This document shows positions 3,833 through 47,828 of a stretch of DNA of 64,000 nucleotides, piece by piece. Source of the stretch: Elusimicrobiota bacterium (GTDB lineage: Bacteria; Elusimicrobiota; Elusimicrobia; UBA1565; UBA9628). How positions within the stretch are numbered: the first letter of the stretch is position 1; each line of letters opens with the position of its first letter. Made by a program: the position numbers and the translations under genes. The notes beneath the pieces are model-generated. The model did not search any database and was not told the origin of the DNA. It saw only the letters and a list, made by a program, of their open reading frames with translations. Where the stretch lies: NCBI GenBank assembly GCA_026388095.1, contig JAPLKL010000044.1, forward strand, positions 3,993-67,992, in the 5' to 3' direction.

Positions 3833-3848
3833 CGGCGCGGCGCGCTCA

Positions 3849-6023: not shown

Positions 6024-6138
6024 TGAAATTATTCGCGGGTCAAGAGGTCGTCAAGGTGGGCGTTTTTGGACTACGAGAATGACGTGATGCCACCATGTTA
6101 TTTTCTTGATTGCGCCGGCTGTTGTGGCGCTTCTTAAA

Positions 6139-11043: not shown

Positions 11044-11049
11044 GGCCGG

Positions 11050-12267: not shown

Positions 12268-12271
12268 AACC

Positions 12272-24738: not shown

Positions 24739-24872
24739 GGTCCTCCTGCCGTCCGGAAGTATATCAAACCAGCATCCGCCGCCGCGCCGGCATCTCGGCA
24801 CCCCGGTTCCAAATTGGTATCATAGCCGTAACGTCCCATGCGTCCCGTGCACATATCCCTGAAGGAGGAAAC

Positions 24873-27881: not shown

Positions 27882-27882
27882 T

Positions 27883-28831: not shown

Positions 28832-29488
28832 TTGAGACGAAAGCCCCGGGGCCGCGTCCAACTCCTGAAGGATTTCGTCACCTTTCCCCTGCGCGCGCTG
28901 ACCCTGTTCCACAATGACCGGTGGGGCCTGTCCGCGCTTTCCTCCGAGCGGTTCGAGTATGTCGGGCGGGAGGTGAGAGGTCGCTGTCTGGACGTGGGCT
29001 GCGGCCGGAGCAACCGGTTCGTGCAGGAGTTCCTGGGCGGCCACGGCAAGGGCATCGACGTTTTCAGGTATGAAGGACTGGCTCGGGACGAAGTCGTCGC
29101 GGACCTCTGTCGCTTCCCCTTCCCGGATGCCTCCTTCGATTCCGTCACGTTCATCGCGAATCTGAACCACGTGCCGCGCTCGAAAAGAGACATCGAGTTG
29201 GCGGAGGCGTGGCGATGTCTAAAGCCGGGCGGCGACATCGTGGTGACCATGGGCAACCCGGTCGCCGAGATCCTGGTGCATCAGGTGGTCTGGCTTTACG
29301 ACAAGGTCTTCAGGACCGACTTCGACATGGATACCGAGCGGGGCATGGCGGAAGGAGAGGAGTACTTCTTGCGGGATGCCGAGATCGTCTCACGTCTGGC
29401 CCGGGCGGGGTTCTGCGGCGTCAGGAAAAAATATTTTCCGACGCAATGGGCGCTGAATCACTTGTTCGTCGCGTCGAAGCCGGTCTGA
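28832..29488 (+). CDS. Class I SAM-dependent methyltransferase.
   Basis: CLDVGCGRSNRF motif I and LKPGGDIVV post-II. Confidence 0.65.
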   Translation: MRRKPRGRVQLLKDFVTFPLRALTLFHNDRWGLSALSSERFEYVGREVRGRCLDVGCGRSNRFVQEFLGGHGKGIDVFRYEGLARDEVVADLCRFPFPDASFDSVTFIANLNHVPRSKRDIELAEAWRCLKPGGDIVVTMGNPVAEILVHQVVWLYDKVFRTDFDMDTERGMAEGEEYFLRDAEIVSRLARAGFCGVRKKYFPTQWALNHLFVASKPV

Positions 29489-30846
29489 GCGAAGAGCCAG
29501 CGCAATAGCCGCAGTCCGCTGCGGGCGAGGTCCAGGAACCCGCGGGGCCTGAGCGCTGTTTTCAAGAGATAGCCGGGCCGGAAGTAGAACCTGCGGTAGG
29601 CCTGGCTCATGATGCGTTTGAGCCGCGCCTCGGTCCAATGGCCCGTGATGAGCAGGGGCCTGGTCTGCCCGTATTCCTCGGGCGCCGGCCCGGGGCCTTC
29701 CCGGTACCAGCCGTTTTTTACCGCCAGGTCGTAGAGGTCTGTGCCGGGCAAGGGGCTGAGGCTGCCGAACTGGGCGTAGTCTATGCCCAGTTCGACAGCG
29801 AACTCCACGGTCTGGAGTTCCTCTTCATGGGTCTCGACGGGGATGCCGAGGATGAAGTAGCCGAGGACCTTGATGCCGGCCTTCTTGGTCTTGGCCACGG
29901 CGTCCTTGACTTGCTCGACCTTGATCCCTTTGCGCAGCCAGTCGAGTCCTTTCTGGTGCGCGGTCTCGATGCCGAAGGCGATCTGGACGCAGCCGGCTTT
30001 CTTCATCCAGGAGAGCAGCTCGTCGTCCACGGTGTTGGCGCGGCATTCGCACTTCCAGCGTATCTTGAGGCCGCTGTCGATGATGAGGCGGCAGAGTCGG
30101 ATGACGCGCTCGCGGTCCAAGGAGAAGAGGTCGTCGTAGAACATGAAGGCTGTGACGTCGTGCTTTGAATGAAGGGCCTCAATTTCCTTTATAACGTTTT
30201 CAGGGCTGCGGGGGCGGTATTTGCTGCCGCACACGGTCTTGTCGCAGAAGATGCATTGGTAGGGGCAGCCGCGGCTGGAGAATATGGTGGCGAGACGTTC
30301 GCCCGGGAACAAGGGATGGCGGTAGCGCTCCATGGGCATGAGGTCCCAGGCTGGGAAGGGGAGCTGGTCCGGGTCCTTGATCGAGGCGGGTGCCGAGTCG
30401 TGGCTTTTGGTGATCACGCCTGGGAAACCGGTGCCGGTGTCTCCGGCCAAGAGCGCCTTTGCGAACCGGGGGAAGCTCTCTTCGGCTTCGCCGCGGAAGC
30501 CGAAGTCGAGCTCCGGGCATTGTTCGAAGATCTTGCGGCTGACGGCGCTGGGGTGGGCTCCGCCGAGCGCGAGCCAGCGGGCGTGGGGGCGCAGGCTCTT
30601 GGCCAGCCGATAGGCGGCGCCGGAGAGGGGGGTTGTGGCTGTGATGCCTACGAGCTCGGGTCTGAGTCTTGCGACTTCTTGTGCGACGGCGTCATGATCG
30701 AGGCCGAGGGCGACGGCGTCGATGATCTGTGTTCCCAGGCCGGCTTGGCGCAGGGATGCGGCGAGGTAGCCTAGGCCGAGGCTGGGGATGACAAGAGAGG
30801 CGCTCTTGCCGGGGATGGGGGGATTGATGAGGGCGATCATGGGCAT
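29458..30846 (-). CDS. B12-binding-domain radical SAM protein.
   Basis: N-terminal B12-binding (Rossmann-like) region. CPYQCIFCDK is the CxxxCxxC radical-SAM motif. Confidence 0.85.
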   Translation of the reverse strand: MPMIALINPPIPGKSASLVIPSLGLGYLAASLRQAGLGTQIIDAVALGLDHDAVAQEVARLRPELVGITATTPLSGAAYRLAKSLRPHARWLALGGAHPSAVSRKIFEQCPELDFGFRGEAEESFPRFAKALLAGDTGTGFPGVITKSHDSAPASIKDPDQLPFPAWDLMPMERYRHPLFPGERLATIFSSRGCPYQCIFCDKTVCGSKYRPRSPENVIKEIEALHSKHDVTAFMFYDDLFSLDRERVIRLCRLIIDSGLKIRWKCECRANTVDDELLSWMKKAGCVQIAFGIETAHQKGLDWLRKGIKVEQVKDAVAKTKKAGIKVLGYFILGIPVETHEEELQTVEFAVELGIDYAQFGSLSPLPGTDLYDLAVKNGWYREGPGPAPEEYGQTRPLLITGHWTEARLKRIMSQAYRRFYFRPGYLLKTALRPRGFLDLARSGLRLLRWLFAQTGFDATNK

Positions 30847-30958: not shown

Positions 30959-33043
30959 CTACGTCGCCTTCGGCGGGATCTTCCCCGAATCCTGCGGCGC
31001 CAACCGCATCCCGCTGGCCATGAGGCTGGCCATGAACGCCGAGAGCATGTTGGCCCCGTCTCCCTGCGCCCCCGACACCACGATGTCCGGCGTGATCTTC
31101 ACCTTGCCGCTGGAGACCTGCTTCATCACCTCGATCATGGCCAGCGGCGCCTGCCCCAGCGCCAGCGCCTGCTTGGTGTAGGCCTCGGCCGTGGCGTGGC
31201 CGATGGCCCGGATCTTCTCGCCCTCGGCCCGCCCCACCGCCTCGATGCCCGCCGCCACGCCCTCCTGCTCCAGCTTGGTGGCCGCGCCGCGGCCCTCGGC
31301 CCCGATGATCAGCCCGGCCTTCTGCTGGGTCGCGATCTGCACGTCGATCTCAGCCTTCACCAGGCTCGGCTGCAAATCCGCCTGGGCCTTGGTCTTCTCC
31401 ATCTCGCGCCGGCGCGACTCCGCCTCCTGCTGGGCGTCGAACATGGATTTCTGCTGGGTGGCCACCACCTTGTTGGTCAAGGTCTGCATCAGCCGCTCGG
31501 GCAGCATGATCTGGCAGATGAGCACGCTCACGCACTCCACGTGGTAGCGCCGCAGCTCCTCCTGCACGTGCTGCTCCGCCATCTGCTGCTGCTCGTGGCG
31601 GTCCTGCATGAACTTCATCGCCTCGGTGGCCGAGGCCTGGTTGCGGTACGAGCTGTCGATGAGCGGATGGATGACGTGCTCGATGAGGTTCTCGATGGTC
31701 CCGATGCGCGCCACCATGTGCGGCGCCTGCTGGGGCAGGACCCGGATGATGACCTTGACCTCGACCGTCATCTCGAAGCCGTCCTTGGACACGATGGCCA
31801 GAGGGTCGAAGGCGCGCGGGCCTTCCTTGCCCTCGGTCTTGCCCGAGGCCCAGTCGATGGTGATGTTGGTCGTGGGGATGATGTGCGGGGTGTAGGCCAG
31901 CTTGTTGAGATAATAGGTCCCCGGCCCCGCCACCTCGCGCTGGATGCCGCGGTAGCCCGCGTCGACCACGTAGCGCTCCATGCCGTATTTGAGAGCCTCA
32001 TCGGACTTCGCGTCCGTTTTCGCGGCTGAGCCGTCCGTGGCCGGGTCCTTGCCGATGTTGGAGACGATGACCGCCACCTCGCCGCGCTGGACCACGGCCA
32101 CGTCGTCGAGAGAGGCGTCGAACATCAGCGGGTTGATGTAATAGGTCCCGGGCCGCAGGAAGTCCAGCTGAGGGCCGCGCTGGCCGGCGTTGGACAGGAA
32201 GCCCGCCGCGTCCTGGTAGTCCCGGTGTCCGGGCACGATTTTGCCCACGTACTCGGTCGGGGGCAAGGGGTCGCCGTCCCGGGCGGTGATGAGGCCCACC
32301 TTCTTGGTGGGCACGACCGTGGCTTCCCGAACCTCGACCTTGAAGAGTTTGGTGTTGACGCGGTAGGTGCCGGGCAGGAGGATGTCGATCTGGGGGCCCT
32401 TCTGCCCGCCTTTCTCGATGAAGGCCTGGCCGTCCTGGAAGTTGTTGTGCCCGTCCACCTTCCGGCCGAGCAGGCGGCCCGGCGCGATGGGCTGGCCGTC
32501 CGCGGCCACGACCACCCCGATATGGCTGTTGGAGATGTTGACGGCCGGCACCTTGTCCACGCGGAAGAGGTAGGGGTTGATCCGGTAGAAGCCCGGAGGC
32601 AGGACCTGGAGTTGGGGGCCTTTCTCGCCGCCGTTGGTGAGGAAGGCGGGGGCGTCCTGGAAGAGGTTGTGCCCCGTGACGACCCGGGCGAAGATGCTGC
32701 CGGGCGGGACGGGGCTGCCGTCGATGGACTCGATCAAGCCGACCTCGTTCTCGCCCACCACGAACATGGGGTGCTTCTCCGTGCGGTAGAGGAAGGGGAT
32801 CAGGAAATGCAGGCCCGGGCCGAGGATGCGCGCCTGGATGCCCACCTCATCGGCCATGGCCACGACGCGGCCGTCCGGCATGGAGCGGCCGAGCCAGCGG
32901 CGCTCCAGCACCGCCACCTGGGTTCCGCCGACGACGACGATGGAGTTGTAGGCGAACCAGAGGGTGAGGATGATGGCCACGGCCACGCCCAGGCCCGTCA
33001 CGGAAAGGCCGAGGATGCCGGCGAAGGCTGTCACGATGTTCAT
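30959..33043 (-). CDS. Flotillin-like SPFH (band-7) protein with N-terminal TM and three internal ~70-aa repeats.
   Basis: 694 aa. TM GLGVAVAIILTLWFAYNSIVVV. Repeated GHNLFQD...GGEKGPQ...PGFYRINPYLF units x3. C-terminal flotillin coiled-coil (EAESRRREMEKTKAQADLQ...). The repeat is also visible at DNA level (32056-32746). Confidence 0.75.
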   Translation of the reverse strand: MNIVTAFAGILGLSVTGLGVAVAIILTLWFAYNSIVVVGGTQVAVLERRWLGRSMPDGRVVAMADEVGIQARILGPGLHFLIPFLYRTEKHPMFVVGENEVGLIESIDGSPVPPGSIFARVVTGHNLFQDAPAFLTNGGEKGPQLQVLPPGFYRINPYLFRVDKVPAVNISNSHIGVVVAADGQPIAPGRLLGRKVDGHNNFQDGQAFIEKGGQKGPQIDILLPGTYRVNTKLFKVEVREATVVPTKKVGLITARDGDPLPPTEYVGKIVPGHRDYQDAAGFLSNAGQRGPQLDFLRPGTYYINPLMFDASLDDVAVVQRGEVAVIVSNIGKDPATDGSAAKTDAKSDEALKYGMERYVVDAGYRGIQREVAGPGTYYLNKLAYTPHIIPTTNITIDWASGKTEGKEGPRAFDPLAIVSKDGFEMTVEVKVIIRVLPQQAPHMVARIGTIENLIEHVIHPLIDSSYRNQASATEAMKFMQDRHEQQQMAEQHVQEELRRYHVECVSVLICQIMLPERLMQTLTNKVVATQQKSMFDAQQEAESRRREMEKTKAQADLQPSLVKAEIDVQIATQQKAGLIIGAEGRGAATKLEQEGVAAGIEAVGRAEGEKIRAIGHATAEAYTKQALALGQAPLAMIEVMKQVSSGKVKITPDIVVSGAQGDGANMLSAFMASLMASGMRLAPQDSGKIPPKAT

Positions 33044-33075: not shown

Positions 33076-33927
33076 TCATTTCCCATCCTCCGCGACAACC
33101 GTATGCGCGGAGACATAGGCTTTAAGCCGGTCGGCGGAGATGACGTCGCAGGCGCAAGTGGGGCATTCCTTCCTGTCGACCGTCAGAAGCTGCTTGCAGC
33201 GGGGGCAGACTCGGATGACGGATGGGTCCACGAATCCGGCGAGCTTGGAGAGGGTCATGATGGCGCCGCAGGGACAGGTGTCCTCGGAGCAGGGCTTGGC
33301 GCAGCGGGGACACGGGATGGGACGGCGCGCGGGCTCGAAGGAGATTCCGCAGTCTTGGCAGCGAGGGGCTTGCGGGGAGTTCCCCGTTCCGCAGACCGGG
33401 CAGGCCGCGAGGGCGTCTTCCTTGGGCGCGGCTCCGGCTGCGTCGGGGAGGCATTCTTGGCAGCTGGTCTCCACGGCGAGCTCCAAGGGCATGCCGGCCT
33501 CCAGCTTCTCCAGGATCTTGCGGCTCAGGATCTGGCTCAGATCATGCGGGGCGGGGGCGGTGGGGCTCTCGGCGGCAGGGGTTTCTTCTTGAGCGGCCGC
33601 AGCCGGGCTTGGATGTTCGGCGAGCTCCACGCCGCATTCGGTGCAGACTCCTCTTCCGTCTCCGGATTCCTCGACTTTTCCGCCGCATTCGGGGCAGCCT
33701 GCGGGCTCGGGACTGTTGGACATTGGCAGGCCGCACTGATCGCAGAAGGCCGCGTCCGCGTCATTGTCCGCGCCGCAGGCCGGGCAGGCTGAGGCTGGGG
33801 CCTTGACCGTCTGGGACGGCTCCGGCGCAGGGCTCTCTCGTGGGGCTTTTTTCAGGGACTCTAGGCAGTGATAGCAGACCTGGCAGCCGTCGTTATTGTC
33901 TTTGCCGCATTTTGGACAACGGATCAT
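33076..33927 (-). CDS. Multi-zinc-ribbon protein, upstream partner of flotillin.
   Basis: 283 aa with at least 6 CxxC...CxxC pairs (CPKCG, CPACG, CPECG, CTECG, CPVCG, CPRC). Confidence 0.6.
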   Translation of the reverse strand: MIRCPKCGKDNNDGCQVCYHCLESLKKAPRESPAPEPSQTVKAPASACPACGADNDADAAFCDQCGLPMSNSPEPAGCPECGGKVEESGDGRGVCTECGVELAEHPSPAAAAQEETPAAESPTAPAPHDLSQILSRKILEKLEAGMPLELAVETSCQECLPDAAGAAPKEDALAACPVCGTGNSPQAPRCQDCGISFEPARRPIPCPRCAKPCSEDTCPCGAIMTLSKLAGFVDPSVIRVCPRCKQLLTVDRKECPTCACDVISADRLKAYVSAHTVVAEDGK

Positions 33928-34024: not shown

Positions 34025-35986
34025 ATGAAGCCCCGGCTGGCTCTCTTCCTCGCCGTACCCGCAGTCTGGGCCGCGCTCCATTACGGCGTCCTCGCCTACA
34101 TCTTCCTCCATCCTGCCTCGATCAGTCTCTCGATCTTCACCCAAACCCTCAAAGTCCTGGCCCGCCTGGCCGTCATAGCCTGGCTGCTCGCCGCCTCCAT
34201 GGGCCTCGGCCGCATCCTCCTAAAGCCCCTCGCTTTGCCCTACGCGGACCAAGCCGAGCGCTCCATCCTCGAAGCCGGCCTCGGCCTCGGCCTCCTCAGC
34301 CACACCCTCTTCATGTTCGGACTCCTGCACCTCTGGAAGCCCGCGCCCTTGGCCGTCCTATTCGTCCTGATGACCATGACCGCATGGACAGCCGCGCGGC
34401 CCCTGTGGAACAAGCTCTCCATCCCGACACGACTGACCTGGCCCCAAGCTCTCTTCGCCGCGCCCATCTTCCTGGCCGCCCTCTACGGCCTCATCTCGGC
34501 CAATGCCCCGCCCACGGAATGGGACTCTTTGGCCGTCCACCTCGAGCTCCCCAAGCTCTACGCCCAACTCGGACACCTCCTGCCCCTGCGCTGGCTCTCC
34601 CACGGCTTCGACCCCATGGCCGTCGAGATGTTCTACGTCCCGGCCCTCGTCTTCAAGTCCGCCGAGCTGCCCGCGCTGGTCGCTCTTCTTTTCGAAGGCC
34701 TCATGGCCGCCGCCCTCTGGGCCTTGGGCAGCCGCATAAGCTCCCGACCCGCAGCTCTTGCAGCCGTCGCCCTATTCCTTTGCCAGCCCGCCGTCGTCAG
34801 CGTCAGCGGCACGCCCGGAACCGACTTCGGCGTCGGCCTGTTCGCCATGCTCGCCTTCTGGACCGCCTGGCGCGCCGTCGAGACCAGGCAAGGCCGCTGG
34901 CTCATCCTCTCCGGCGCGCTCAGCGGTCTGGCCGCCGTGTCCAAGACCACCGGCGTATTCCTGGCGGCGGCCCTGGCGGCCATGCTCGCCTTCGTCGCGC
35001 TGCGCCAAGAGCGCGCTTTGCGCAAATGGACGCTCGCCTGGGCCGCGGCCGCGGCCCTCTTCGCTTTGCCCTGGTTCCTGCGGACATTCATCTATATGCA
35101 CAATCCCATCTGGCCCTATTTGCCCCAGCTCTTCGGCGGCAGTCCCAGGGATCTCTACATATTCGCACGGCTCAAGGACGCCACCTTGGAAGGCCTCGGC
35201 ACCGGCTGGCGCCAGCTGCTTCTGCTGCCCCTGCACCTCATCTTCGAGGACCCGGACACCTTCCACCATTCCAGCCGGGAGCTGCTCATCCCCTTCCTCG
35301 CGTTGGGCGCCCTCAACTGGCGCAGCGCCTGCAAAGACCCTTTCGCCAAGTGGTCTTTCGCCTATCTGGGCCTCTTCACGCTCCTGTGGTTCCAAGCCGT
35401 GCAGAACTGGCGCTACTTCATCCCGCTCATGCCGTGGCTCTGCCTGCTCACCTGCGGCTGGGCCGAGCGGACCTGGCGGCAGGCAGGCTGGCGCGCGGGC
35501 GCGGCCTGCGTGCTCGCAGTCGGTTTCATCGCGGTCCCGGCCCTGTCCGCCAACAACGCCCTTTTCCCGGTGCTCGGACTGAGGCCCCAAGACCCCCGGC
35601 AAAGCCCGCAGGACGCGTATCTGAGCCGCAACATCGATTCCTATCCGGCCATGGCCTATATCAACCAAACGTTCCCGGCGGATGCCCGCATCCTCCTCTA
35701 CCGGGAGGTCCGGCCCTTCTACCTCGACCGCTATGTCCTCATCGGCGACCCCCAGAACGAGATGCTCATCCGCTATGAAGAGCGCGACACGCCCGAAGAG
35801 CTCTACCGGCGGCTGCGCGAGCTCGGCCTGACCGCGGTTCTCGTCGATCCCCATCTGGAGACCTTCAGCACGCGCGTGCCGGGCTTCATGCGCGCCGAAG
35901 CCTTGCTGAGGACCGTGCTGCAGCGCTACGCCGCACCCCCCGTCGACATCAACGGCGTCTGGATCTATTCTTGGAGGACGCCGTGA
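34025..35986 (+). CDS. GT-C glycosyltransferase (family 39/83-like, PMT/ArnT-type polyprenyl-phosphate-sugar-dependent transferase) with C-terminal periplasmic domain.
   Basis: 653 aa, about 11 TM. The first periplasmic loop has a DxD/TEWDS-like motif. Confidence 0.65.
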   Translation: MKPRLALFLAVPAVWAALHYGVLAYIFLHPASISLSIFTQTLKVLARLAVIAWLLAASMGLGRILLKPLALPYADQAERSILEAGLGLGLLSHTLFMFGLLHLWKPAPLAVLFVLMTMTAWTAARPLWNKLSIPTRLTWPQALFAAPIFLAALYGLISANAPPTEWDSLAVHLELPKLYAQLGHLLPLRWLSHGFDPMAVEMFYVPALVFKSAELPALVALLFEGLMAAALWALGSRISSRPAALAAVALFLCQPAVVSVSGTPGTDFGVGLFAMLAFWTAWRAVETRQGRWLILSGALSGLAAVSKTTGVFLAAALAAMLAFVALRQERALRKWTLAWAAAAALFALPWFLRTFIYMHNPIWPYLPQLFGGSPRDLYIFARLKDATLEGLGTGWRQLLLLPLHLIFEDPDTFHHSSRELLIPFLALGALNWRSACKDPFAKWSFAYLGLFTLLWFQAVQNWRYFIPLMPWLCLLTCGWAERTWRQAGWRAGAACVLAVGFIAVPALSANNALFPVLGLRPQDPRQSPQDAYLSRNIDSYPAMAYINQTFPADARILLYREVRPFYLDRYVLIGDPQNEMLIRYEERDTPEELYRRLRELGLTAVLVDPHLETFSTRVPGFMRAEALLRTVLQRYAAPPVDINGVWIYSWRTP

Positions 35987-36705
35987 GGATCGCGCTCATC
36001 CCCATCTACAACGAGGAGACCACGCTCTCCGGGGTCCTGCAGTCCGCCAGCCGCTGGGCGGACTACCTGGTCCTGGTCGACGACGGCTCCTTGGACGGCT
36101 CCGCCCGCATCGCCCGCGATTGGTGCCTCAAGCGCGGGGCCAAGGGCGCCTTCATCGCCTTGCCCGAGAACCAGGGTATGGGCGCGGCGCTCAAGGCGGG
36201 CTTCATCCATATCGCGCGCGGCCTCGAAGCCGGACATTGGCGGCCCCAGGACCTGGTCGTGTTCGTGGACGCCGACGGGCAGTACCAGGACGCCGCCCCC
36301 CTGAGGCTCTGCGCCCATGTGGAGAGCCGCGGCTGCGACGTGGCCTCGGTGCGCCGCGATTTCTCCCTCTACCCCTTCTACAAGCGCTTGGGCAACAGCC
36401 TGCTCAGCCTCTGGGCCGGCCTCTTGTGCGGACAGCGCTTCTACGACATCGAAGCCGGCATGCGGGTCATGAAGGCCGGGATGATCCCGAGCCTGTTGGA
36501 GTACTTCATGGGCTTGCGCTACAGCTGCTCGCAGGAGATCGGGATCATCTCGGTCCTGCTGGGCTTCAAAGTGGACAACACCCTCGTCCAGCCCGTGAGC
36601 TACTACCGCTCCCGGACCCGGATCATCGACTTCCTGGCCAACGCAGCGGTGGGGCTCATCGCGAGCCTGCGGGTGCGTTTTCGGCGCAAGGTCTCCGGTA
36701 CGTGA
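35983..36705 (+). CDS. GT2 polyprenyl-phosphate glycosyltransferase (DPM1/GtrB/ArnC-like).
   Basis: IALIPIYNEE and VLVDDGSLDGS DxD region. C-terminal TM helix. GTGA start/stop overlap with the GT-C gene. Confidence 0.75.
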   Translation: MRIALIPIYNEETTLSGVLQSASRWADYLVLVDDGSLDGSARIARDWCLKRGAKGAFIALPENQGMGAALKAGFIHIARGLEAGHWRPQDLVVFVDADGQYQDAAPLRLCAHVESRGCDVASVRRDFSLYPFYKRLGNSLLSLWAGLLCGQRFYDIEAGMRVMKAGMIPSLLEYFMGLRYSCSQEIGIISVLLGFKVDNTLVQPVSYYRSRTRIIDFLANAAVGLIASLRVRFRRKVSGT

Positions 36706-39137
36706 ACGCCTGGAGCCCCGCCCAGGCCAGGATCAGGAGCCACGCCGTGACCCCGCCCCAGAGCAGGCGCTCATACCACGAGGTGTCCACTAGGCTCGAC
36801 ATCGGCAGCTTGAAATAGAACTTGTCGAACCATAGCAAGGTCATGCTGCCGGCCGACAAGGCGCCGAGCACGGTCATGCCTGACGGCAGGGCCACGGCGG
36901 GGAGGTCCACGAGCAGTCCCAGGATGGGGGTGAGGAGGAATCCTATGGGCTTGAGCGCCGCCAGCGCGGCCAGAAGACGAGGATTCCAGACCTTGCCCAT
37001 GCCGGAGTAGGCGGCAGCAACGGAGATGTGCGAGAAATCCAGCCGTCCCCCGGGCAGGACGTAGGCCCACAAGCACAGCCCGACCAAGCCCAGCCCTTCC
37101 CAGAGCGGCACCGGCACCACGGTCAGCAAGGCCCAGCGCCAGCCGGCCAGCGTCGCCAAAGCGAGCAGGCACGCTTCGCTGCCGGAGGATTGCGTGCGGC
37201 AGAAGGCCAGGCCGGCCAGGCTGGCCCAGAAGGCCTTGGCCTGAGGCGGCAGGGGCGAGAGCCAGGCCGCGCCCAGCGAGAGCAGGCAGAGCCCCCACGT
37301 CCAATGACGCAGGGCCTGCGGCCAGGGCAGAAGAGCTAAAACCACGGGAGCGACCGCGACGGCGCATGAGATCATGGCCGGCTTGCGGCCCAGCTCCGCG
37401 ACCAGGCGCCGGTAGAGCACGGCCGCCAGGGCCAGCGCGGCGCCGAGCTCTACGGCGCGCCAAGGAGCGGCGCCGAAACGGCGCAGGTCGAAATGAGGCA
37501 GGCAATAGCGCAGCGTGGACATCTCCGTCCCGCTGGCCCAGGCGCTCATGACGGCGCAGGCCGCCAAAGTCGCCGCGGCCCAAGCCAGGGGCGGCAGTCC
37601 GGGCCGCTCCCACCGGGCCAGCCGCAGCGCGAGCAGAAAGACCAGGACGGCCCACGACCAGAGGGAGACGTCCACCAGGCTCGGGAAGGCGATGGTAGCC
37701 AGCGCCGCCCACCACAGAAACCAGCCCCGCCAGCTCAGGGCCGGGGCATCCAGCCCGGAGGACATGCTCAATAGGAGCAGTCCAGCCGAGGCGGCCAGCC
37801 CCCAAGCCATGGCCGGCGGCCAAAGACCGTCGATCCGCAGGGGGAGGACCAGAAGTCCCAGGCATAAGGCCACCAGGACCCCGGCAGCGATCCGGGTCCT
37901 GGGCCGGGCCATGGGCCAAGCCGCGCTGAAGGAAGCGGCCAGCACCATCAGCCACAGCAGCCAAGTCAAGCGCCCGACCCACTGGCTCGGCGAGTGCGCA
38001 TCGAGCTCATGGTCCACGGCCGCCACGGCGCGCTCCGCGGTTGCGGCGCTGCCGCTATAGGCGCCGGCCTGCCAGCGGGTCCGGGCCTGCTGGAGCGCTG
38101 AATCCGGATCGCTCGTCAGCCAGGGCCAATCGGTGCGCGCCGCGAACCAGCGCCTGCGGCGCTGCTCCAGCAGGTCGAGCATGACCGAGGCCTTGTCGCG
38201 CGCGGAGATCTCAAAAGCTTCGAGGTGCGGCAGCCCTCTGGCTTGGATCGGCGGCGGCAGGCCCATGAACGCGGCCAAAGTGGAAGCCGAATCGTTCTGA
38301 GCGAACGTCCCCAGCCGGCCGGGATGGATGCCGCGCCCCCAGAGGACGTAGGGCACCCGGCGGACGACCATCTCCATGCCGCCATGGCTGCCGTCCGCGG
38401 CTTGTCCGTGATCCGCCGTCACCAGGACGGCGGCCTGCGGGCCGGCGGCCGCGGCCAGCTCCATGATCCGTCCGTCCAGCCAAAGCAGCTTGCGGCGGTA
38501 GTCGGCCGAGCGGGTGCCTTCGCGATGCCCGATGCCGTCGAGGTCGAAGAGGTGGATGGCCAGGAAATCCCAGCCGTCCCCCCGGAGGATGCGCATGGCC
38601 CGGCGCAAGACCTCCGGGTCTTCCGGGCGGCCCGTGTAGGCGACGAGCTCCATGTGGGCGGCGTGGTCCTTGAACAGGGCGGGCCAATCCTGCTGGCCTA
38701 TGGTGAACACCCGGCGGCCGGCCGCGCTGGCCCGGGCCATCACCGAGTCGCGCTCCCAGTGCGCCGGCATCCCGCCCAGGAACACGGGCTCCGGCACTCC
38801 GGTCCGGCCGCTCAAGAGGGCCCGCAGCCCGTTGGGGGTCAAGGTCGGGAAAGACGCCAGGGCGGTCCCCCAGGCCGCTTGCCGCAACTGGGCCTGCAGG
38901 CGCGGCATGAAGCCCGAGGACAGGGCCATGTCGGAGCCCAGCCCGTCGACCATGATGAAGATCAGGCGCGGCGCCACAGGCGCGCGGGCTCCCGCGATGG
39001 GCACCGGTTGGACTTTGGGTGTGAAGCGCTCCGCCCGGGGTATGAGCAGGGGGACCAAAGAGACGGTCCCCAGCAGCGCCGCGGTGAAGATCCCGGCGCA
39101 GGCGACCCGGCCCGTGGAAAACAGGCGCTCGTTCAAG
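36656..39137 (-). CDS. Alkaline-phosphatase-superfamily phosphoethanolamine-transferase-like membrane protein with eukaryote-type (PigN/PigO-like) architecture: N-terminal catalytic domain, C-terminal ~14 TM.
   Basis: Catalytic motifs IFIMVDGLGSDM, FPTLTPNGLRALLSGR (Thr nucleophile context), VTADHGQ. Proposed TTG start at 39135-39137 overlapping the stop of the upstream small ORF (TTGA). The 5' end of annotated ORF 36656-39382 is R/P/G-rich and likely untranslated. 50-bp convergent overlap with the GT2 3' end. Confidence 0.6.
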
Positions 39138-39336
39138 GCTCTTCGGGTGGGGGCGCGGAGACGCGGCGATCCAGCCGGATCAGGTAGACGCAGACCGCGG
39201 CCCAGCCGGCCGCGCGCAGCAGGGCCCAGCCGGCCCCCAACCAATGCAGCGTCACCAGGTCCAGGACCAACCCGACCAGGTTGATCAGCGCGAGGACGCC
39301 GCAGGCGAACAGCATGATCTTGCGCAGGAGTCTCAT
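39133..39336 (-). CDS. Small 2-TM membrane protein.
   Basis: 67 aa. ATGA overlap with the SIS gene stop and TTGA overlap with the downstream transferase start. Confidence 0.45.
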   Translation of the reverse strand: MRLLRKIMLFACGVLALINLVGLVLDLVTLHWLGAGWALLRAAGWAAVCVYLIRLDRRVSAPPPEEP

Positions 39337-40355
39337 ATCGTGCGGGTGACCTTGTGCAGGCCCTTGGGCCGGTCCGGGTCAAGGCCCCGGGACGCGGCCA
39401 GGTCCAGGGCGGCCAGCTTGAGCTCCACGTCGAGCAGCAGGGCGCTCAAGGGCGCCTGGCCGCCCGCGGGCCAGAGCACCTCATGAGGCGTGCCGCGGCC
39501 GCGCAGGGCCTTGCGCACCCGGGCCAGGTCGTCCGGGAGCTTGCGGCCCGAGGGCGAGAGGAGCAGGACCAGGTCCCGCGGTCCGCAGGCGCCCACCGGG
39601 CCGTGCAGGAAGGAGGCGGCGGAATGGGCGGTGGCGTGCAGGCCCGCCAGTTCGCGGAACTTGAGCGCCGCGTCCTTGGCCACGGCGTAGAAGGGGCCGC
39701 GCGCCACGAGGCTCAGGACGGGGGCGCGGCGCAGGCGCTTCCAGGCCGCGGCGAAGCGGCCGGCGGGGGGGAAGTCCCGGGGCCGGGAGAGGTAGCGCGC
39801 CAAGGCCGCCTGGGTCTCGCGGAGCTCAGCCTCGGCGGGCCAGCCGCACCAGAGGCGCGAGGTCCATAAGGCCAGCCAGAGCTGCAAAGAGAAGGTCTTG
39901 GTCGCGGCCACGGAGAGCTCGGGGGAGCTGGAGAGCAGGATGTGGCGCCCGGCCTGCCGGGCCAGAGGGTTGCGGGCCGGGTCCGGCTCGTTGGTCACGG
40001 CCACGCCCTGGGCGCCCCAGCCCATGAGCTTCTTGAGGGCGGCGACCACGTCCGGGCTGCGTCCGGACTGTGAGAAGGCCCAGACCACGCGTCCCCGGAA
40101 ATCGAGGGGCCGGCGGGCCTCGAAGACGGAGTGGGGGTGGACGAAGTCGGCGCGCACCCCGGCGTAAGCCTCCCAGATGTACTTGGCGAAGAGCGTGGCG
40201 TTGTCCGAGGAGCCGCGGCCCACGAGGTGGACCGAGCGGTCCGCGGCCTTGAGCAGGCAGCCGCGCAGCCGCTGCGGGGCCTTCTCCGAAAAGGCCGCCA
40301 AGAGCGCCGGTATCTCGTGGATGTCTCGCCAGGTGCTGGTGTCGCTGGCCTTCAT
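39333..40355 (-). CDS. SIS-domain sugar-phosphate isomerase/aminotransferase-like protein (AgaS/GlmS-isomerase-domain-like, two SIS domains).
   Basis: VHLVGRGSSDNA (SIS motif). Second SIS region VLSLVARGPFYAVAKDAALKFRE. Confidence 0.65.
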   Translation of the reverse strand: MKASDTSTWRDIHEIPALLAAFSEKAPQRLRGCLLKAADRSVHLVGRGSSDNATLFAKYIWEAYAGVRADFVHPHSVFEARRPLDFRGRVVWAFSQSGRSPDVVAALKKLMGWGAQGVAVTNEPDPARNPLARQAGRHILLSSSPELSVAATKTFSLQLWLALWTSRLWCGWPAEAELRETQAALARYLSRPRDFPPAGRFAAAWKRLRRAPVLSLVARGPFYAVAKDAALKFRELAGLHATAHSAASFLHGPVGACGPRDLVLLLSPSGRKLPDDLARVRKALRGRGTPHEVLWPAGGQAPLSALLLDVELKLAALDLAASRGLDPDRPKGLHKVTRTI

Positions 40356-40566: not shown

Positions 40567-43095
40567 ATGCCCAAGGACCCGGCTTTCGCCAGGACCCTGG
40601 TCGCCGAGATCCAGCGCTTCGACCCGGCTCAGCCGGGCGACGACAAGTCTCCGGCCGTCTATTGGGTGAAGCAGGCCGTCCAGAGCCCCGAGCCGCGCCA
40701 GCAGGTCTGCGAGCTCCTGGATACGCTGGGCCCGGACGGGGCGGCCGCGAAGTCCAAGCTCATATCTTTGGCCGCGGCCCCGCTGGCGCTCCCGCCCGAT
40801 GCCAAGGCGGCCCAGGTCCCCGGGAACCTCGCCTCCGCGGCCGCGGACTCTGTTCGGAAGGTTTCATGGGACGCGGCCGGCTCGCGACTGGCTTTCGACG
40901 GGGACAAGGCCCGCTCCGAGGGCGGGGCGATCCCCGTGCCCGGGGTCCCGGGCGGGACGCACCCCCCCGAGCTCTCCCCCTACCAGAACCTGCCCGATCT
41001 GCTCACCAAGCCCACGCCTCCGGGGACCATCAAGGTCGTGGCCGTGTCCGTGGACAAGCTCCAGGACCTGGCGCGCAAGCAGGTCTATTCGGAGCGCCAG
41101 GCGGGGCTCGACAAGGCCCTCGGCATCACCCAGGGCGTGGGCGTAGACGGCGGAGGGTTCTTCAAGGTGAAGATCCTCAACCCCGACGAGGTGAGGGCCG
41201 ACCCGGTCAAGCAGGCGGTGCGCGACGAAGCGGCCAAGAAGGGCGAGAAGATCGTGTTCGTGCGCACCGACACCAAGGTGCAGATGGGAGCCAGCGCTTC
41301 CATCCCGATCGAGAACCCGACCGGCGTGCCGGGGGTGTCCTTGGGCGTGGGCCTGCGGATCAACGGCATCATCGAGATCGTGGAGACCCGGGCCATCCCG
41401 GAGGACAAGGCCGGCGCTTGGCTGCACGCGGAGCAGCGGGTCTTCCTCTGGCCGCTGACGGCCAAGCACCTCAAGGAGGTCATGCGCCCTGGCGAGGACC
41501 TGACCATCACGGGCCGCCTGGACGAGGGCGCGGCCCAATCTTTGGGCTTCGGCTCGAGCCTGGGCCTGCCCAAGTACGCGCACGTGGGCGTCAACGCGGG
41601 CGCCAGCGTGGGCAAGGCCGCGGACCAGTGGGTCTCTCTGCACCTCAAGAAGATCGACGACGACCATGTGCGCATCCTGCTGCAGAAGGCCGACGGCGAG
41701 ACCTTCAGCACCAACGTGGCCGCCTCGGCCGGCCTGCAGATCTACAACGACCTGCTGATCCCGCAGGTGACGCCGACCTCCTTGGAGCAGGGGCTGGTGG
41801 GGAAAGCCGTGCTCAGCGGAGAGAAGGGGATCATGCACCAGATCGAGCAGCTGGCCTCCGCCTCGCTCTCCGGCTCCTGGAGCCAGGGCAAGGACGACCT
41901 GGAGGCCGAGGGCTGGGCCTCGGTGCCGCTCTCCGATCCGAAGGTCGGCGCGGCGCTCGATTCCTTCTTCAAATTCCGCCCTGAGGCCCTGCGGGGCCTG
42001 CCCGCGGAGGGGACCTTCGCCCAGGAACTCAACGCCGGCCGCTTCAAGGCGGATGTGCGCGACATCACGACCAACGCGGCTTTCCAGGCGCACATCTCCA
42101 AGCTCAAGATCGCGCTGGCCGACGGCACCGCCTTCTACGAGGTGCGCTGGCGGCAGGACGGCGCGCTCAAGCACTACGTGGTGGGCCTGACGAACTTCAA
42201 CTACCACGGCGACGTCACCAAGACCAACCGCTCCGAGCAGATGGCGCTGTGGTACGACCTCGACACCAAGAAGACCGCGGTCACGGTTGCCCTGGGTCCG
42301 CAGAACCGGCTCATGACCACGACGCGCGAGAAGGTCAACGACGTCATCGCCACGCAGAAGGCCATGGGCGTGCCGGTCAGCGGCAAGTACGACGAGCCCA
42401 AGCCGTACCTCCAACTCTTTGGACTGGGCAACATCGGGCGCAGCGAGGAGACGGGGAGCTTCTATCTGTCGGACGAGGGCGTGCAGGCTCTGCGCGGCGC
42501 CAGCCGGGAGCAGCTCGTCGCCGCCTACCTGCACGCGGACTGGATCTACGAGAAGGAGAGCTGGGAGCCGGGCCGGAACTTCTGGGCCATGTCCTCCAAG
42601 CCTCCGGCCTGGGCCGAGACCATCGACCCCGAGGCGCTCAAGCCCGTTCTGGATTTCCTGCACGACCACGCCTCCGAGGCCCGCCGCCTGCAGGGCGCCG
42701 ACAAGAGCAACCGCGGCCAGTTGGCCGCGCTGGAGGCCCGCTACCGGAGCGTGGCTCCGGGCCGCTATCTGATGGGCGACGCCTGGGCCTACACCGACGC
42801 GAGCGACTACGCCAACCTGGTCGGCGACATGCAGCGCTCCGACAACCCGGAGCAGCTGGTGGAGCTGTTCATGAAGTTCCGCCACGACGACGGCCTGGAG
42901 CTCAAGCGGGCGGTGGTGGCTACGGCCACGCTGGCCGGGGAGCGCGTCGGGCCGGACGGCAAGCCGGTTCCCAACTGGCAGGGCTGGATCCAGATGACGG
43001 GCAAGAACGTGCAGCTCGTGCCCGCGGGCGGCCCGCCGCCGCTGCCGCTGCATCCGGTCGGCGAGCTCCAGACCTTGCTCGGCCGCTGGCAGTAG
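40567..43095 (+). CDS. Large secreted hypothetical protein (842 aa from annotated ATG). A cryptic signal peptide sits in-frame upstream; see finding.
   Basis: No recognisable domain. In-frame upstream translation reads KKSSFIILAVAALAASASGQTSSS, which is signal-peptide-like. Confidence 0.55.
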   Translation: MPKDPAFARTLVAEIQRFDPAQPGDDKSPAVYWVKQAVQSPEPRQQVCELLDTLGPDGAAAKSKLISLAAAPLALPPDAKAAQVPGNLASAAADSVRKVSWDAAGSRLAFDGDKARSEGGAIPVPGVPGGTHPPELSPYQNLPDLLTKPTPPGTIKVVAVSVDKLQDLARKQVYSERQAGLDKALGITQGVGVDGGGFFKVKILNPDEVRADPVKQAVRDEAAKKGEKIVFVRTDTKVQMGASASIPIENPTGVPGVSLGVGLRINGIIEIVETRAIPEDKAGAWLHAEQRVFLWPLTAKHLKEVMRPGEDLTITGRLDEGAAQSLGFGSSLGLPKYAHVGVNAGASVGKAADQWVSLHLKKIDDDHVRILLQKADGETFSTNVAASAGLQIYNDLLIPQVTPTSLEQGLVGKAVLSGEKGIMHQIEQLASASLSGSWSQGKDDLEAEGWASVPLSDPKVGAALDSFFKFRPEALRGLPAEGTFAQELNAGRFKADVRDITTNAAFQAHISKLKIALADGTAFYEVRWRQDGALKHYVVGLTNFNYHGDVTKTNRSEQMALWYDLDTKKTAVTVALGPQNRLMTTTREKVNDVIATQKAMGVPVSGKYDEPKPYLQLFGLGNIGRSEETGSFYLSDEGVQALRGASREQLVAAYLHADWIYEKESWEPGRNFWAMSSKPPAWAETIDPEALKPVLDFLHDHASEARRLQGADKSNRGQLAALEARYRSVAPGRYLMGDAWAYTDASDYANLVGDMQRSDNPEQLVELFMKFRHDDGLELKRAVVATATLAGERVGPDGKPVPNWQGWIQMTGKNVQLVPAGGPPPLPLHPVGELQTLLGRWQ

Positions 43096-43190: not shown

Positions 43191-44492
43191 ATGAAGGCCC
43201 TGGCACTCGCCTTGCTCGCGCTGGCCGCCGCGCCGGTCCACGGCGTGGAGGTGGCGCGCGTGCAGGTGGCCGCGCCGGTCAACTCCTTCATCACGGGCGC
43301 CTCGGCCGTGGGCGCGCGCTCCCAGATCGGCCCGCTGGCCAACCCGTCCCTGTCGGGCGCGGGCGCGCTGTCTTTGACCTCGAAGCTGGCCGTCCCGACC
43401 TTGGTCCCGACGGTGATCCCCGTGGCGCCGGGAGTCCAGTCCTACTCCGCTCCCAGCGCGGCCCCCCAGACGGTCTCCGCAATCCCGCTCTCCGCTCCCG
43501 CGGCGCTGGCTCCGACGGGCGGCGCCTCGCTGCTGCAGCAGTCCGCGGAGCAGAAGAGCGCGCCGGCGGCCGCGGTGAACACTTTGCACGGCTTCGTGGC
43601 GCAGATGGAGTCCAGCCGGGTCTCGGGCCGGAACATCTCCAACGAGCTCTCCAACCGTTTCTTCGACCAGTCCGGCACGCGGGGCCCGCCGCTCGCGGTT
43701 CCGGCCGAGGCCTCGGTCTCCGACGTCGCGGCGCCCAAGCTGCCTCAGGGCGTAACCAAGGTGGCGGTGGACACGGTGCGCAGCGCCGCGGACGTGCAGC
43801 GCCTCATCCCGGACAGCGGGAACTCAAAGAGCCTCAAGGCCAAGCTCAAGCGCATGGTCTCGCAGATGGCGCCTTACCAGATCTATACCTATTACGACCG
43901 GAAGGGCGGGCGCTTCGCGGGCATCGATCTTTCCGCCAGACCCGGCTTGATCGACCAGATCCCGGAGCTGCAGCAGCACGAGGTGAAGCTCATCAAGAAG
44001 CTGATGCTGGTCAACAGCGACATCCGGGTCCTGGTGCGCGAGGACGGAAAGACCCCGGACCTGGTGATAGGCGACAAGCTGGTGGAGATCAAGAGTTCCC
44101 TCGGGGAGGCTATGGCTTTGGAGTCGCTCATCGCGAAGGCCAACATGCAGATCTTGGAGCACGGCCAGCGCCACGGCTTGGGGCGCGGCGCTATGGCTTT
44201 GGATTTGACGCGCCAGTCGCGGGTCCCGGTGGCCGAGGTCCAGGGCATCCTGGACTCCTGGCAGGCGGGGTCTAAGGACCAGATTGTTTTGGAGCAGGTG
44301 ATCGTGTTCGGCCAGACGGACATGCAGGTCTTCATGCGCCAGGCGGACGGAACCTACCGGATCCAGGCGCCGGCCGCCGCGGTCCGGCACATCGTCAACG
44401 AGCGGCCGCTGGCCCCGTCCGAAAGGGGCCGGGCTCAGGCGCTGCTGCGCAACGGCATCGAGAAGTCGCCGGTGCTGGCCCTGAGCCTGTAG
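43191..44492 (+). CDS. Secreted hypothetical protein with Ala/Pro-rich linker and C-terminal domain carrying a PD-(D/E)xK-like motif.
   Basis: Signal peptide MKALALALLALAAAPVHG. TATAAT at 43173-43178. Motif TPDLVIGDKLVEIKS. Immediately upstream of tRNA-Gln. Confidence 0.6.
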   Translation: MKALALALLALAAAPVHGVEVARVQVAAPVNSFITGASAVGARSQIGPLANPSLSGAGALSLTSKLAVPTLVPTVIPVAPGVQSYSAPSAAPQTVSAIPLSAPAALAPTGGASLLQQSAEQKSAPAAAVNTLHGFVAQMESSRVSGRNISNELSNRFFDQSGTRGPPLAVPAEASVSDVAAPKLPQGVTKVAVDTVRSAADVQRLIPDSGNSKSLKAKLKRMVSQMAPYQIYTYYDRKGGRFAGIDLSARPGLIDQIPELQQHEVKLIKKLMLVNSDIRVLVREDGKTPDLVIGDKLVEIKSSLGEAMALESLIAKANMQILEHGQRHGLGRGAMALDLTRQSRVPVAEVQGILDSWQAGSKDQIVLEQVIVFGQTDMQVFMRQADGTYRIQAPAAAVRHIVNERPLAPSERGRAQALLRNGIEKSPVLALSL

Positions 44493-44546
44493 GCTGCCAC
44501 CCCGGCCCGGCAAATTTTGGTAGAATATGTCCGTTCACCGATTTAT

Positions 44547-44617
44547 TGCCGGATGGTGAAATGGTATCACGGGTGGCTCTGAACCACTTATTCTAGGTTC
44601 GAATCCTAGTCCGGCAG
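44547..44617 (+). tRNA. tRNA-Gln (anticodon CUG).
   Basis: Cloverleaf by hand. Acceptor TGCCGGA/TCCGGCA with U1-A72; D-stem GTGA/TCAC; anticodon stem GGTGG/CCACT with loop CTCTGAA (CUG); variable TATT; T-arm CTAGG-TTCGAAT-CCTAG; discriminator G. No encoded CCA. Confidence 0.8.
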
Positions 44618-44637
44618 AACTTTAGCGGCAAAAAAAA

Positions 44638-45648: not shown

Positions 45649-47052
45649 TTAGTAGAACTTGAGCGCCGGGTCAGCGGCGCTCAGCCGGGGCGTTTGTTCT
45701 CGGTTCTGACGGCGCGCGGCGCGCGGCACCTCGCGCGCGAGATAATCGCCGAGTTCCGCCATGGTCACGTGCCCGTCCTTGTTAGCGTCCGCCGCTCCCT
45801 GGAGTCCCTTGAGCAGGAAATACGTGAACACCCCGTGCCCCTCATCCTGCAGGCCGCCGGCAATCTGGTCGCCGGCCGACGCTGTCAGGATGGAGAAGCG
45901 CGGGTCGCTCGGCGCGTCGGTTTGCCGGACCGTGACGAGGGGGCGGGCGCCTTTGGCCAGGACGGAGCGGCCGCCCGCGCCCGAAAAGCAGGCGTCAATG
46001 ATGACGACGATTTGGCGGGCTTTGAGTGCCGCCAAGCGCTCGTAGAGGCGGGACAACGGGTACGCGCTCGATTCCAGGAAGGCCGGGTCGCCGTCCCAGG
46101 GCACCAGATAGGCGCTGCCTTTGACCGGGTCCGGGGCGCCATGTCCGGAGTAATAGACCCACAGGCGCGATTTCTCGGTGACATTCTTCGGCAGCCACTC
46201 CTCGATGTAGCGGGCGAGGCCGGCGCGCGTGGCCCGCGAGCCCAAGAGCGCAATCGCATTCTCCTTTGGAACGCCCAGGCGCTCCACCGCGTAGCGCCCG
46301 AACGCTGCGGCGTCGCGCTCGCCGAATTCGGCTTCGGGGATGGACTGGTAGCGCTCTACGCCCATGATGAGGGCGTAATCGTCCGGCTGGGGAACGGTCT
46401 GGGCGCCAGGCTCCTCCACGTCGGACCGGCGCGCCTGCGCGACAGGGGAAGGCGCTGCGGGCGCGGCGGGAGGCTGGCCGCCAGCCTGCAGGAACGCCTC
46501 GCTCAGGTTGAGCATCGACTCGTCCGACTCCAGCGTCGCGAAGGCTTCTCCGAAGGCCATGGTCAGGGCGGTCTGCGGGTCGTTGGCCCGGCCGCTACCG
46601 GCGTAGCCGCGGGCCCAGAGTCGGGCGCGCCGGCGGCTATCGACGATGGTCAGTTCGAAGGCGGCGTCGGCCCGGTAGTCCTTGGTGAACTGCAGGGCGC
46701 CCACCTCCGCGCGCTGGATGGTCCCGCGCAGGGCCAAGGGTGAGGGGCCGCCCAGGACGCCCTTGCGCTCCAGGGCTGCGGCGACATTGCGCTCCACGCT
46801 GGCGCCCAGGTCTCCTCCGGCGGAGATGGCCGTTTGCCCCGCCACGCTGAATCCGCCGTAGCCGAAGAGCGAGGGGTCGCGCCTTTCGTCGTGGAAGCGT
46901 TCGACGACGACGGCGAAAAGGGGCTCGCGCGCCTGCGCGGGGCGCGGCTGCGGCATGAGGGCGTCCACGGGCAGTACGCGGGGCGTAGCCACCGTCATGC
47001 AGCCGGACAGGCCGGCCATGCCGATGACGGCAAGGAGGGCCAGCCGCCTCAT
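45649..47052 (-). CDS. Caspase-like (peptidase C14) lipoprotein.
   Basis: Starts MRRLALLAVIGMAGLSGC (lipobox). C-terminal caspase domain YYSGHGAPD...IVVIIDACFSG (His-Gly / Cys dyad). The upstream 250 codons of annotated ORF 45649-47814 are R/P/G-rich read-through and are rejected. Confidence 0.7.
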   Translation of the reverse strand: MRRLALLAVIGMAGLSGCMTVATPRVLPVDALMPQPRPAQAREPLFAVVVERFHDERRDPSLFGYGGFSVAGQTAISAGGDLGASVERNVAAALERKGVLGGPSPLALRGTIQRAEVGALQFTKDYRADAAFELTIVDSRRRARLWARGYAGSGRANDPQTALTMAFGEAFATLESDESMLNLSEAFLQAGGQPPAAPAAPSPVAQARRSDVEEPGAQTVPQPDDYALIMGVERYQSIPEAEFGERDAAAFGRYAVERLGVPKENAIALLGSRATRAGLARYIEEWLPKNVTEKSRLWVYYSGHGAPDPVKGSAYLVPWDGDPAFLESSAYPLSRLYERLAALKARQIVVIIDACFSGAGGRSVLAKGARPLVTVRQTDAPSDPRFSILTASAGDQIAGGLQDEGHGVFTYFLLKGLQGAADANKDGHVTMAELGDYLAREVPRAARRQNREQTPRLSAADPALKFY

Positions 47053-47720: not shown

Positions 47721-47828
47721 GGGGACATCTCCGGAGCCCACTGATCAGAGAGATGCACCGGCATCCGTGATGATTGTAGAAAAAAGCGCTGGCGTTGTGG
47801 GACAAACAAGTCAAGCCCGGAGCATTAG

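Follow-up and report, generated by a model that had tools for sequence, protein, structure and literature searches.

The 64,000-nucleotide stretch of DNA analyzed here (the window; Elusimicrobiota bacterium, GenBank assembly GCA_026388095.1, contig JAPLKL010000044.1, positions 3,993 to 67,992 of the forward strand) encodes an 826-amino-acid (aa) membrane enzyme of the alkaline phosphatase superfamily which, judged by its sequence, is very probably a bacterial homolog of the eukaryotic glycosylphosphatidylinositol (GPI) ethanolamine-phosphate transferases PIGN/Mcd4, PIGO/Gpi13, and PIGG/Gpi7. This enzyme, a putative phospho-headgroup transferase that we call the transferase for short, is encoded at the end of a minus-strand operon that also specifies a SIS-domain protein and a micro-protein. 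It converges on a plus-strand operon for a GT-C glycosyltransferase (GT-C) and a family 2 glycosyltransferase (GT2). We lean slightly toward an account in which these two convergent operons, kept in one uncultured Elusimicrobia clade, act on the same envelope glycoconjugate.

The order of parts in the transferase is that of PIGN/Mcd4 (PF01663 plus PigN, PF04987) and of PIGG/Gpi7 and PIGO/Gpi13 (PF01663 plus PIGO_PIGG, PF19316). All have an anchor helix, an extracytoplasmic catalytic domain, a helical linker, and about 14 to 15 membrane helices, and the metal ligands, the position of the nucleophile, and the DHG-x6-G-x-HG spacing are shared as well. A first-pass annotation, made by a model from the sequence alone, had proposed the PIGN/PIGO/GPI7 layout and a domain order opposite to that of EptA and LtaS, and both proposals hold. 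In EptA/MCR-1, EptC, LtaS, and PbgA/YejM, the membrane bundle comes first and the sulfatase domain (PF00884) last, and a Pfam scan of the transferase found no match to PF00884. The same annotation had put the catalytic domain at the N terminus with about 14 transmembrane helices behind it. The order of these parts is right, but an anchor helix (residues 14 to 34) precedes the catalytic domain, as it does in PIGN, and an AlphaFold model has about 15 helices after it.

Profile comparisons place the anchor, catalytic domain, and linker of the transferase in homology with the GPI transferases. The Mcd4 and Gpi7 query sequences were checked before use; the former matched Pfam PigN at 3e-141 and showed 100% identity to P0159 in the database, and the latter matched Pfam PIGO_PIGG at 3e-55. 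In hhalign, the family profile matched Mcd4 with a probability of 99.7% (E, 2.9e-26), and the catalytic half of the family matched a 25-sequence yeast PIGN alignment with an E value of 1.1e-34 over 350 columns, a stretch that takes in both the anchor helix and the linker. Bit scores were compared using one 69-sequence family profile and one fixed database size. Under these terms, hmmsearch gave yeast PIGN proteins 150 to 200 bits with envelopes spanning profile positions 10 to 790 (110 to 152 bits for the catalytic part), and Gpi7 178 bits overall (164.8 for the catalytic domain, plus a weak C-terminal part); for the catalytic half, the GPI transferases scored 127 to 165 bits. The top match of the same profile among all PDB sequences was the Xanthomonas nucleotide pyrophosphatase/phosphodiesterase (NPP), with 91 bits and coverage of profile positions 15 to 248 only. 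With a narrow, 7-sequence profile, PIGN proteins scored 40 to 59 bits versus 22 bits for the best PDB match. Because the scores are higher with both the wide and the narrow profile, the catalytic domain appears to be a closer relative of the GPI transferases than of the NPPs, and by sequence it is much further from EptA/LtaS. Identity to Mcd4 is about 22 to 24%, and the active-site motifs fall in register with Mcd4 GDGLRAD, PTESRPGH, GCDTAGH, and ADHGMSAFGSHGDG. It had been considered at the outset that the catalytic domain might cluster with ordinary NPPs or with LtaS; by profile scores, it does not.

These comparisons bear on another explanation, namely, that the transferase is a membrane-anchored hydrolase (an NPP-type phosphodiesterase, a phospholipase-C-like enzyme, or a phosphatase) whose polytopic domain serves for anchoring or in some other role. 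Pfam does place the protein in Phosphodiest (4e-11), and its NCBI name is alkaline phosphatase family protein. In a Foldseek comparison with solved structures, only the catalytic domain found partners, with the Xanthomonas NPP first among them. No GPI ethanolamine-phosphate transferase was among the PDB matches listed in either the sequence or the fold searches, and EptA/MCR-1, EptC, LtaS, and PbgA/YejM were absent from the 60 of 84 PDB matches listed for the family profile. Against a hydrolase, the GPI transferases score above any NPP, and the NPP match goes no further than the DHG motif (profile position 248), whereas the PIGN and Gpi7 matches run on through GxHGG and the linker. The NPPs (Xanthomonas NPP and ENPP1-7) have no polytopic membrane domain, and the transferase does not share their soluble or single-pass form. 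Its membrane domain, conserved and about 440 residues long, has a motif of its own and is modeled as one compact unit (predicted TM score [pTM], 0.92), which is hard to explain as a mere anchor. We consider a hydrolase improbable.

The relationship is not one of recent borrowing. The best-scoring characterized relatives are eukaryotic, as would be expected if a PIGN gene had been acquired recently from a eukaryote by horizontal transfer, but the low identity to Mcd4 does not fit such an event, nor does the breadth of the family, with its thousands of cluster representatives, of which those inspected look bacterial. The window transferase is also less close to Gpi7 and Mcd4 than other bacterial members are, and the GC content at third codon positions (GC3) of the transferase gene, 0.87, is that of its neighbors. 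We reject recent acquisition from a eukaryote.

The evidence for the membrane half of the protein is more divided. Several results weigh against extending the homology beyond the linker. Pfam PigN and PIGO_PIGG matched neither the window transferase (E of ≤0.01) nor any of 57 relatives (E of ≤0.1), the hhalign probability for the membrane-domain match to PIGN was only 3.6%, and fold searches found no match to the membrane domain among solved structures. In the reciprocal direction, a hidden Markov model (HMM) of yeast-only PIGN membrane domains gave no signal above controls against the bacterial membrane domains. The transferase differs from the GPI transferases in being bacterial (it comes from an Elusimicrobia metagenome-assembled genome [MAG]), in falling below these Pfam models, and in having a membrane-domain similarity that is weak and nonreciprocal. 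On the other side, the family membrane-domain profile scored a median of 14.7 bits (top, 22.6) against PIGN membrane domains, compared with -1.4 when the sequences were reversed and -3.1 when they were shuffled within windows. The hhalign membrane-domain score was 27.3, compared with a mean of 13.0 (standard deviation, 2.1; maximum, 20.7) in 130 column-shuffled nulls and 17.7 for a reversed alignment. The most conserved loop of the family, GGRLDFSHISVAAAYSG, followed by a helix with ALKP, aligns on PIGN FFGTGNVASISSF...MLKLIIP and on Gpi7 GGTNSISTIDLGNAYHG, and the register of this motif is identical in every alignment, whether made by hhalign or by HMMER. In the window protein, the loop reads GGRLDFSHISVAAAYSGMG; it is invariant in the close family, with G..(F/L)(S/G).(I/L).(V/I) as the wider consensus. 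Homology of the membrane domain to that of PIGN is probable on these sequence comparisons. As an alternative, the transmembrane region might have been a separate transporter fused to the catalytic domain; what was found instead is this weak PIGN-like similarity.

The catalytic center itself is intact. The motifs VDGLGSDM, FPTLTPNG, and TADHGQ, read in the first-pass annotation, are present, as is the DHG-x6-G-x-HG motif. Across the 69 family sequences, D64, D200, H204, D221, H243, G249, and H251 are invariant (69/69), D242 is found in 65, and position 100 is threonine in 63 and serine in 6. Because the ligands are conserved across these sequences, the two-metal site is judged complete. By analogy with NPP, T100 would be the nucleophile. 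An AlphaFold model built from the 69-sequence alignment (pLDDT, 91.9; pTM, 0.92) consists of the anchor helix, an alpha/beta domain (residues 57 to 300), three linker helices (residues 312 to 380), and about 15 more helices up to residue 812. A model from 7 sequences was too poor (pLDDT, 59.6) and was replaced by this one; the quality of the prediction depended on alignment depth.

The family to which the transferase belongs is far larger than a first count suggests. A word-indexed search returned only nine relatives, and a genome scan with the 7-sequence alignment found only two Elusimicrobia MAGs; an exhaustive profile search returned 4,969 cluster representatives at an E value of <1e-3 and 121 at <1e-30. 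About 20 of these matches align over their full length, and most others cover profile positions 45 to 330 (up to 450), at the N terminus of proteins of 550 to 970 aa. The only inspected sequence with a source organism name came from a Blastocatellia MAG, and the members listed are unnamed or annotated as "hypothetical" or "alkaline phosphatase family protein." A full-text literature search of partial coverage found no functional study or description of bacterial PIGN-like proteins. The transferase family is a large bacterial branch of putative lipid-dependent phospho-headgroup transferases with the eukaryotic layout, one that Pfam does not model.

Yeast cannot live without the three GPI ethanolamine-phosphate transferases, which are also mutated in human disease and are targets of antifungals; enzymes of the EptA/MCR-1 type cause polymyxin resistance. 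A large bacterial family with the eukaryotic layout could offer tractable prokaryotic models for structure and mechanism, and it would provide a concrete lead on the origin of this part of the GPI pathway. It would also constitute a previously unstudied class of envelope-modifying enzymes, distinct from EptA/MCR-1. In addition, the conserved neighborhood, with its GT-C, predicted polyprenyl-phosphate sugar synthase, and aminosugar isomerase, suggests an idea of what the acceptor is that can be tested.

What is known of the chemistry of EptA and the GPI transferases lets us propose how the transferase might work. On the periplasmic side, Thr100 would attack a membrane phospholipid at its phosphodiester, the likeliest substrate being phosphatidylethanolamine; this would free diacylglycerol and leave the phospho-alcohol on the enzyme. 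The polytopic domain would hold a membrane-bound acceptor, and one of its sugar hydroxyls would then receive the phospho-alcohol. Going by gene linkage, GT2 would work in the cytoplasm and charge polyprenyl phosphate with a sugar, GT-C would transfer the polyprenyl-linked sugar to the acceptor in the periplasm, and the transferase would decorate the GT-C product; the SIS enzyme would interconvert fructose-6-phosphate and glucosamine-6-phosphate and may supply an aminosugar. The acceptor could be lipopolysaccharide (LPS)/lipid A, some other glycolipid, or a protein. By analogy with these known systems, it is plausible that phosphoethanolamine is the group transferred and that the genes share one glycoconjugate pathway. 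In the fullest version of the account, the clade builds a membrane glycan from a polyprenyl-phosphate sugar by means of GT-C and caps it with phosphoethanolamine from phosphatidylethanolamine, which would make it the bacterial equivalent of glycan decoration in GPI-anchor synthesis, and the bacterial family is the stock of the eukaryotic GPI transferases; this version seems to us a long shot. A product that is itself GPI-like is, if anything, more doubtful still.

Whether the five genes belong together was judged from a survey in which the five proteins were compared by tblastn with 22 related loci, along with the genes called there. The five-gene layout is kept in L006 and L016, whose transferases are 66 to 77% identical to that of the window (the micro-protein is missing in L006). 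Four short contigs (L007, L020, L021, and L022; 63 to 76%) show part of the layout, either the SIS side or the GT2/GT-C side, and are consistent with it. L001, L002, L003, and L018 (78%) have the same layout plus a TPR-repeat gene between the transferase and GT2 genes. Two more distant relatives retain some of the linkage: in L004 (43%), the SIS, GT-C, and transferase genes lie on one strand, with a downstream fragment that is not recognizably GT2, and L005 (40%) has a GT-C gene at a distance of 4 kb upstream. The first-pass annotation had described one five-gene glycoconjugate cluster. That linkage is borne out in one Elusimicrobia clade and partly in the two distant relatives, but it does not extend to seven others (L008-L015; transferase, 28 to 57%), where GT-C, GT2, and SIS are absent from the vicinity of the transferase gene. 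The linkage to GT-C is real within this lineage and is not family-wide.

It is possible, then, that the transferase is PIGN-like but that the genes do not form one pathway, the transferase modifying another envelope molecule (as EptA does with lipid A), GT-C and GT2 serving a separate target, and the SIS enzyme being a housekeeping protein. The seven relatives without these neighbors count against a common pathway and favor this explanation, as do the convergent orientation of the two operons, which are not cotranscribed, and the TPR gene that separates them in four loci. Identity of the SIS protein is 79 to 89% across all related loci, compared with only 43 to 78% for the transferase; between the window and L004 (2313-3332), the SIS protein is 79% identical, while the transferase is 43% and GT-C 31% identical, revealing very unequal rates. 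Because it is so much more conserved than its neighbors, the SIS gene may be a housekeeping gene, which is a further point against a shared function. The donor and the acceptor in the proposed pathway are assigned entirely by analogy. Separate pathways would not readily account, however, for L004, which is rearranged and yet has SIS, GT-C, and transferase genes still adjacent on one strand, for the GT-C gene near the 40%-identical transferase of L005, or for the persistence of 50- to 68-bp convergent packing where the transferases are 66 to 77% identical. We consider separate pathways unlikely, although they deserve more weight than a hydrolase, and retain joint action on one envelope glycoconjugate as the preferred account.

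The convergent overlap between the GT2 and transferase genes had been flagged in the first-pass annotation as unusual and worth verifying. It is real and recurrent, measuring 50 bp again in L022 and 68 bp in both L006 and L016, and is not an accident of assembly. In the transferase it is confined to the variable tail that follows W805, and the C terminus of GT2 is conserved even where the TPR gene separates GT2 from the transferase. We see the overlap as close packing that a free tail can tolerate rather than as a separate functional element; it possibly has antisense consequences. The TPR-repeat gene itself encodes 694 aa (10429-12513 on the minus strand in L001; also in L002, L003, and L018) and overlaps the transferase 3' end by 77 bp.

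The five open reading frames (ORFs), their junctions, the motifs, and the overlap are all present in the sequence as first described (Table 1). The stop of GT-C is overlapped by the GTG start of GT2 at 35983 (GTGA), the stop of SIS by the ATG of the micro-protein (ATGA), and the stop of the micro-protein by the TTG of the transferase at 39136 (TTGA), giving two convergent operons, GT-C-GT2 (plus strand) and SIS-micro-protein-transferase (minus strand). The stop codons of GT2 (36703-36705) and of the transferase (36656-36658) bound the 50-bp overlap. GC3 ranges from 0.87 to 0.94 across the five genes, and this codon-position GC settles the frames. The TTG start proposed for the transferase is right: the resulting 826-aa protein is identical to an NCBI entry named "MAG: alkaline phosphatase family protein" (Elusimicrobia bacterium), encoded on a 215-kb contig, and the homolog N termini and GC3 agree with it. 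The maximal ORF of 908 aa (36656-39382, minus strand) was rejected; GC3 in its upstream extension is 0.50, the micro-protein ORF fills this stretch in another frame with a GC3 of 0.90, and the homolog N termini disagree with it. For GT2, TTG at 35971 was dropped as a start in favor of GTG 35983 by homolog alignment, as the latter corresponds to the first residue of an 86%-identical homolog. A promoter and terminator scan found nothing beyond chance level.

Table 1. Features of the five-gene locus and of the transferase (window positions)
Feature	Position	Strand	Description and basis
GT-C gene	34025-35986	+	653-aa ORF; Pfam PMT_2
GT2 gene	35983-36705	+	240 aa, GTG start; Pfam Glycos_transf_2
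PIGN/PIGO/PIGG-like alkaline-phosphatase-superfamily membrane enzyme (putative phospho-headgroup transferase)	36656-39136	-	826 aa, TTG start
Micro-protein gene	39133-39336	-	67 aa, two hydrophobic helices
SIS gene	39333-40355	-	340 aa, double SIS; Pfam SIS
Convergent 3' overlap, GT2/transferase	36656-36705	both	50 bp
Transferase signal-anchor helix, residues 14-34	39035-39097	-	Model helix; translation AGIFTAALLGTVSLVPLLIPR; paired by hhalign with the PIGN N-terminal helix
Transferase catalytic domain, predicted periplasmic and two-metal, residues 45-305	38222-39004	-	D64, T100 (putative nucleophile), D200, H204, D242, H243, H251
Transferase C-terminal polytopic membrane domain, residues 383-812	36701-37990	-	~15 helices; model secondary structure; no Pfam family
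Transferase membrane-domain loop motif	36995-37051	-	Translation GGRLDFSHISVAAAYSGMG; aligns with PIGN FFGTGNVASISSF and Gpi7 GGTNSISTIDLGNAYHG

The two plus-strand genes had been described as a GT-C and a DPM1/GtrB-like GT2 coupled by a GTGA overlap, and the family matches and the junction agree with this. GT-C matched PMT_2 (5e-12; 46.7 bits versus a cutoff of 26.1 bits), which is a generic model; the PIG-M, PIG-V, and PIG-B models were unmatched, and no PDB sequence matched. It has an acidic EWD motif (PTEWDSLAVH in the window and ATDWDVLAYH in L004) in what is presumably the first extracytoplasmic loop, and a soluble C-terminal domain of about 130 aa; GC3 of the gene is 0.87. The GT-C ortholog in L001 is 80% identical, and the 31%-identical GT-C of L004 (E, 1e-43) lies between SIS and the transferase. 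GT2 matched Glycos_transf_2 (1.8e-15; 57.7 bits) and, among solved proteins, ArnC best (6e-6). Its matches to the NCBIfam equivalogs for dolichyl-phosphate (Dol-P) hexose transferase, PpgS, and ArnC were weak and below cutoff (39.6, 39.5, and 30 bits versus 375, 370, and 529). At 240 aa, it is about 80 residues shorter than the matched ArnC chains (322 to 363 aa). By sequence, GT2 is a predicted polyprenyl-phosphate sugar synthase (DPM1/GtrB/ArnC-like). The pairing of a small GT2 with a GT-C enzyme, here translationally coupled, resembles ArnC-ArnT, GtrB-GtrC, Ppm1-PMT, and DPM1 with PIG-M/V/B.

The micro-protein is a real gene, as its copies are 60 to 79% identical in four related lineages (L001, L007, L016, and L020), making five lineages with the window; it is absent in L006 and L021. 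It had no Pfam or NCBIfam match. It is translationally coupled on both sides (ATGA and TTGA) and is possibly an accessory subunit. In L006 (7975-8001) and L021 (2367-2393), the SIS and transferase genes are only about 25 bp apart. The SIS protein, with two SIS stretches (Pfam, 4e-23), matched NCBIfam NagB-II at 1.9e-40, yet with 139 bits versus a cutoff of 430 bits, and matched the glucosamine-6-phosphate deaminase of PDB entry 8eol over its full length (1.6e-29). By sequence, it is a NagB-II/GlmS-isomerase-like aminosugar-phosphate enzyme.

Some of the loci without GT-C, GT2, and SIS have lipid-related genes as neighbors instead, which counts in favor of the preferred account. In L015, a PLD-type gene (two PLDc_2 domains; 6049-7248) lies directly upstream of the transferase relative, and in L012, a PF04185 phosphoesterase gene has that position. 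DedA/VTT genes are found two genes from the transferase relative in L010 and L012. The lipid-related neighbors are at 3256-4095 and 7561-8205 in L012 and at 5806-6510 in L010.

Elsewhere in the window, ten flanking ORFs were scanned and were found to belong to radical SAM, SPFH, zinc-ribbon, cation-efflux, caspase, and hexapeptide families or to have no match; no other GPI-pathway family was among them, and the flanking genes are unrelated to the locus. Between GT-C and a B12-binding radical SAM gene (29458-30846) lie genes for a 694-aa SPFH/Band 7 protein (30959-33043, minus strand) and a 283-aa double-zinc-ribbon-rich protein (33076-33927, minus strand). In L001, the radical SAM gene adjoins GT-C, so that the SPFH and zinc-ribbon genes represent either an insertion in the window or a deletion in L001. 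On the other side, two plus-strand ORFs diverge from SIS, of 842 aa (40567-43095) and 433 aa (43191-44492); neither has a Pfam family, and the second begins with a signal-peptide-like stretch. They are followed by tRNA-Gln (anticodon CTG; 44546-44618, plus strand), the sole tRNA in the window, and by a 721-aa ORF (45649-47814, minus strand) with a C-terminal caspase domain (Peptidase_C14; 1.7e-9). A 1,092-aa ORF without a Pfam family (24735-28013, minus strand) shares its stretch with an overlapping ORF of 724 aa that runs in the opposite direction (24873-27047). Finally, a fluoride riboswitch (Rfam RF01734; 55520-55585, plus strand; 61.8 bits; E, 9.5e-15) lies a short distance upstream of an ORF whose start is at 55604.

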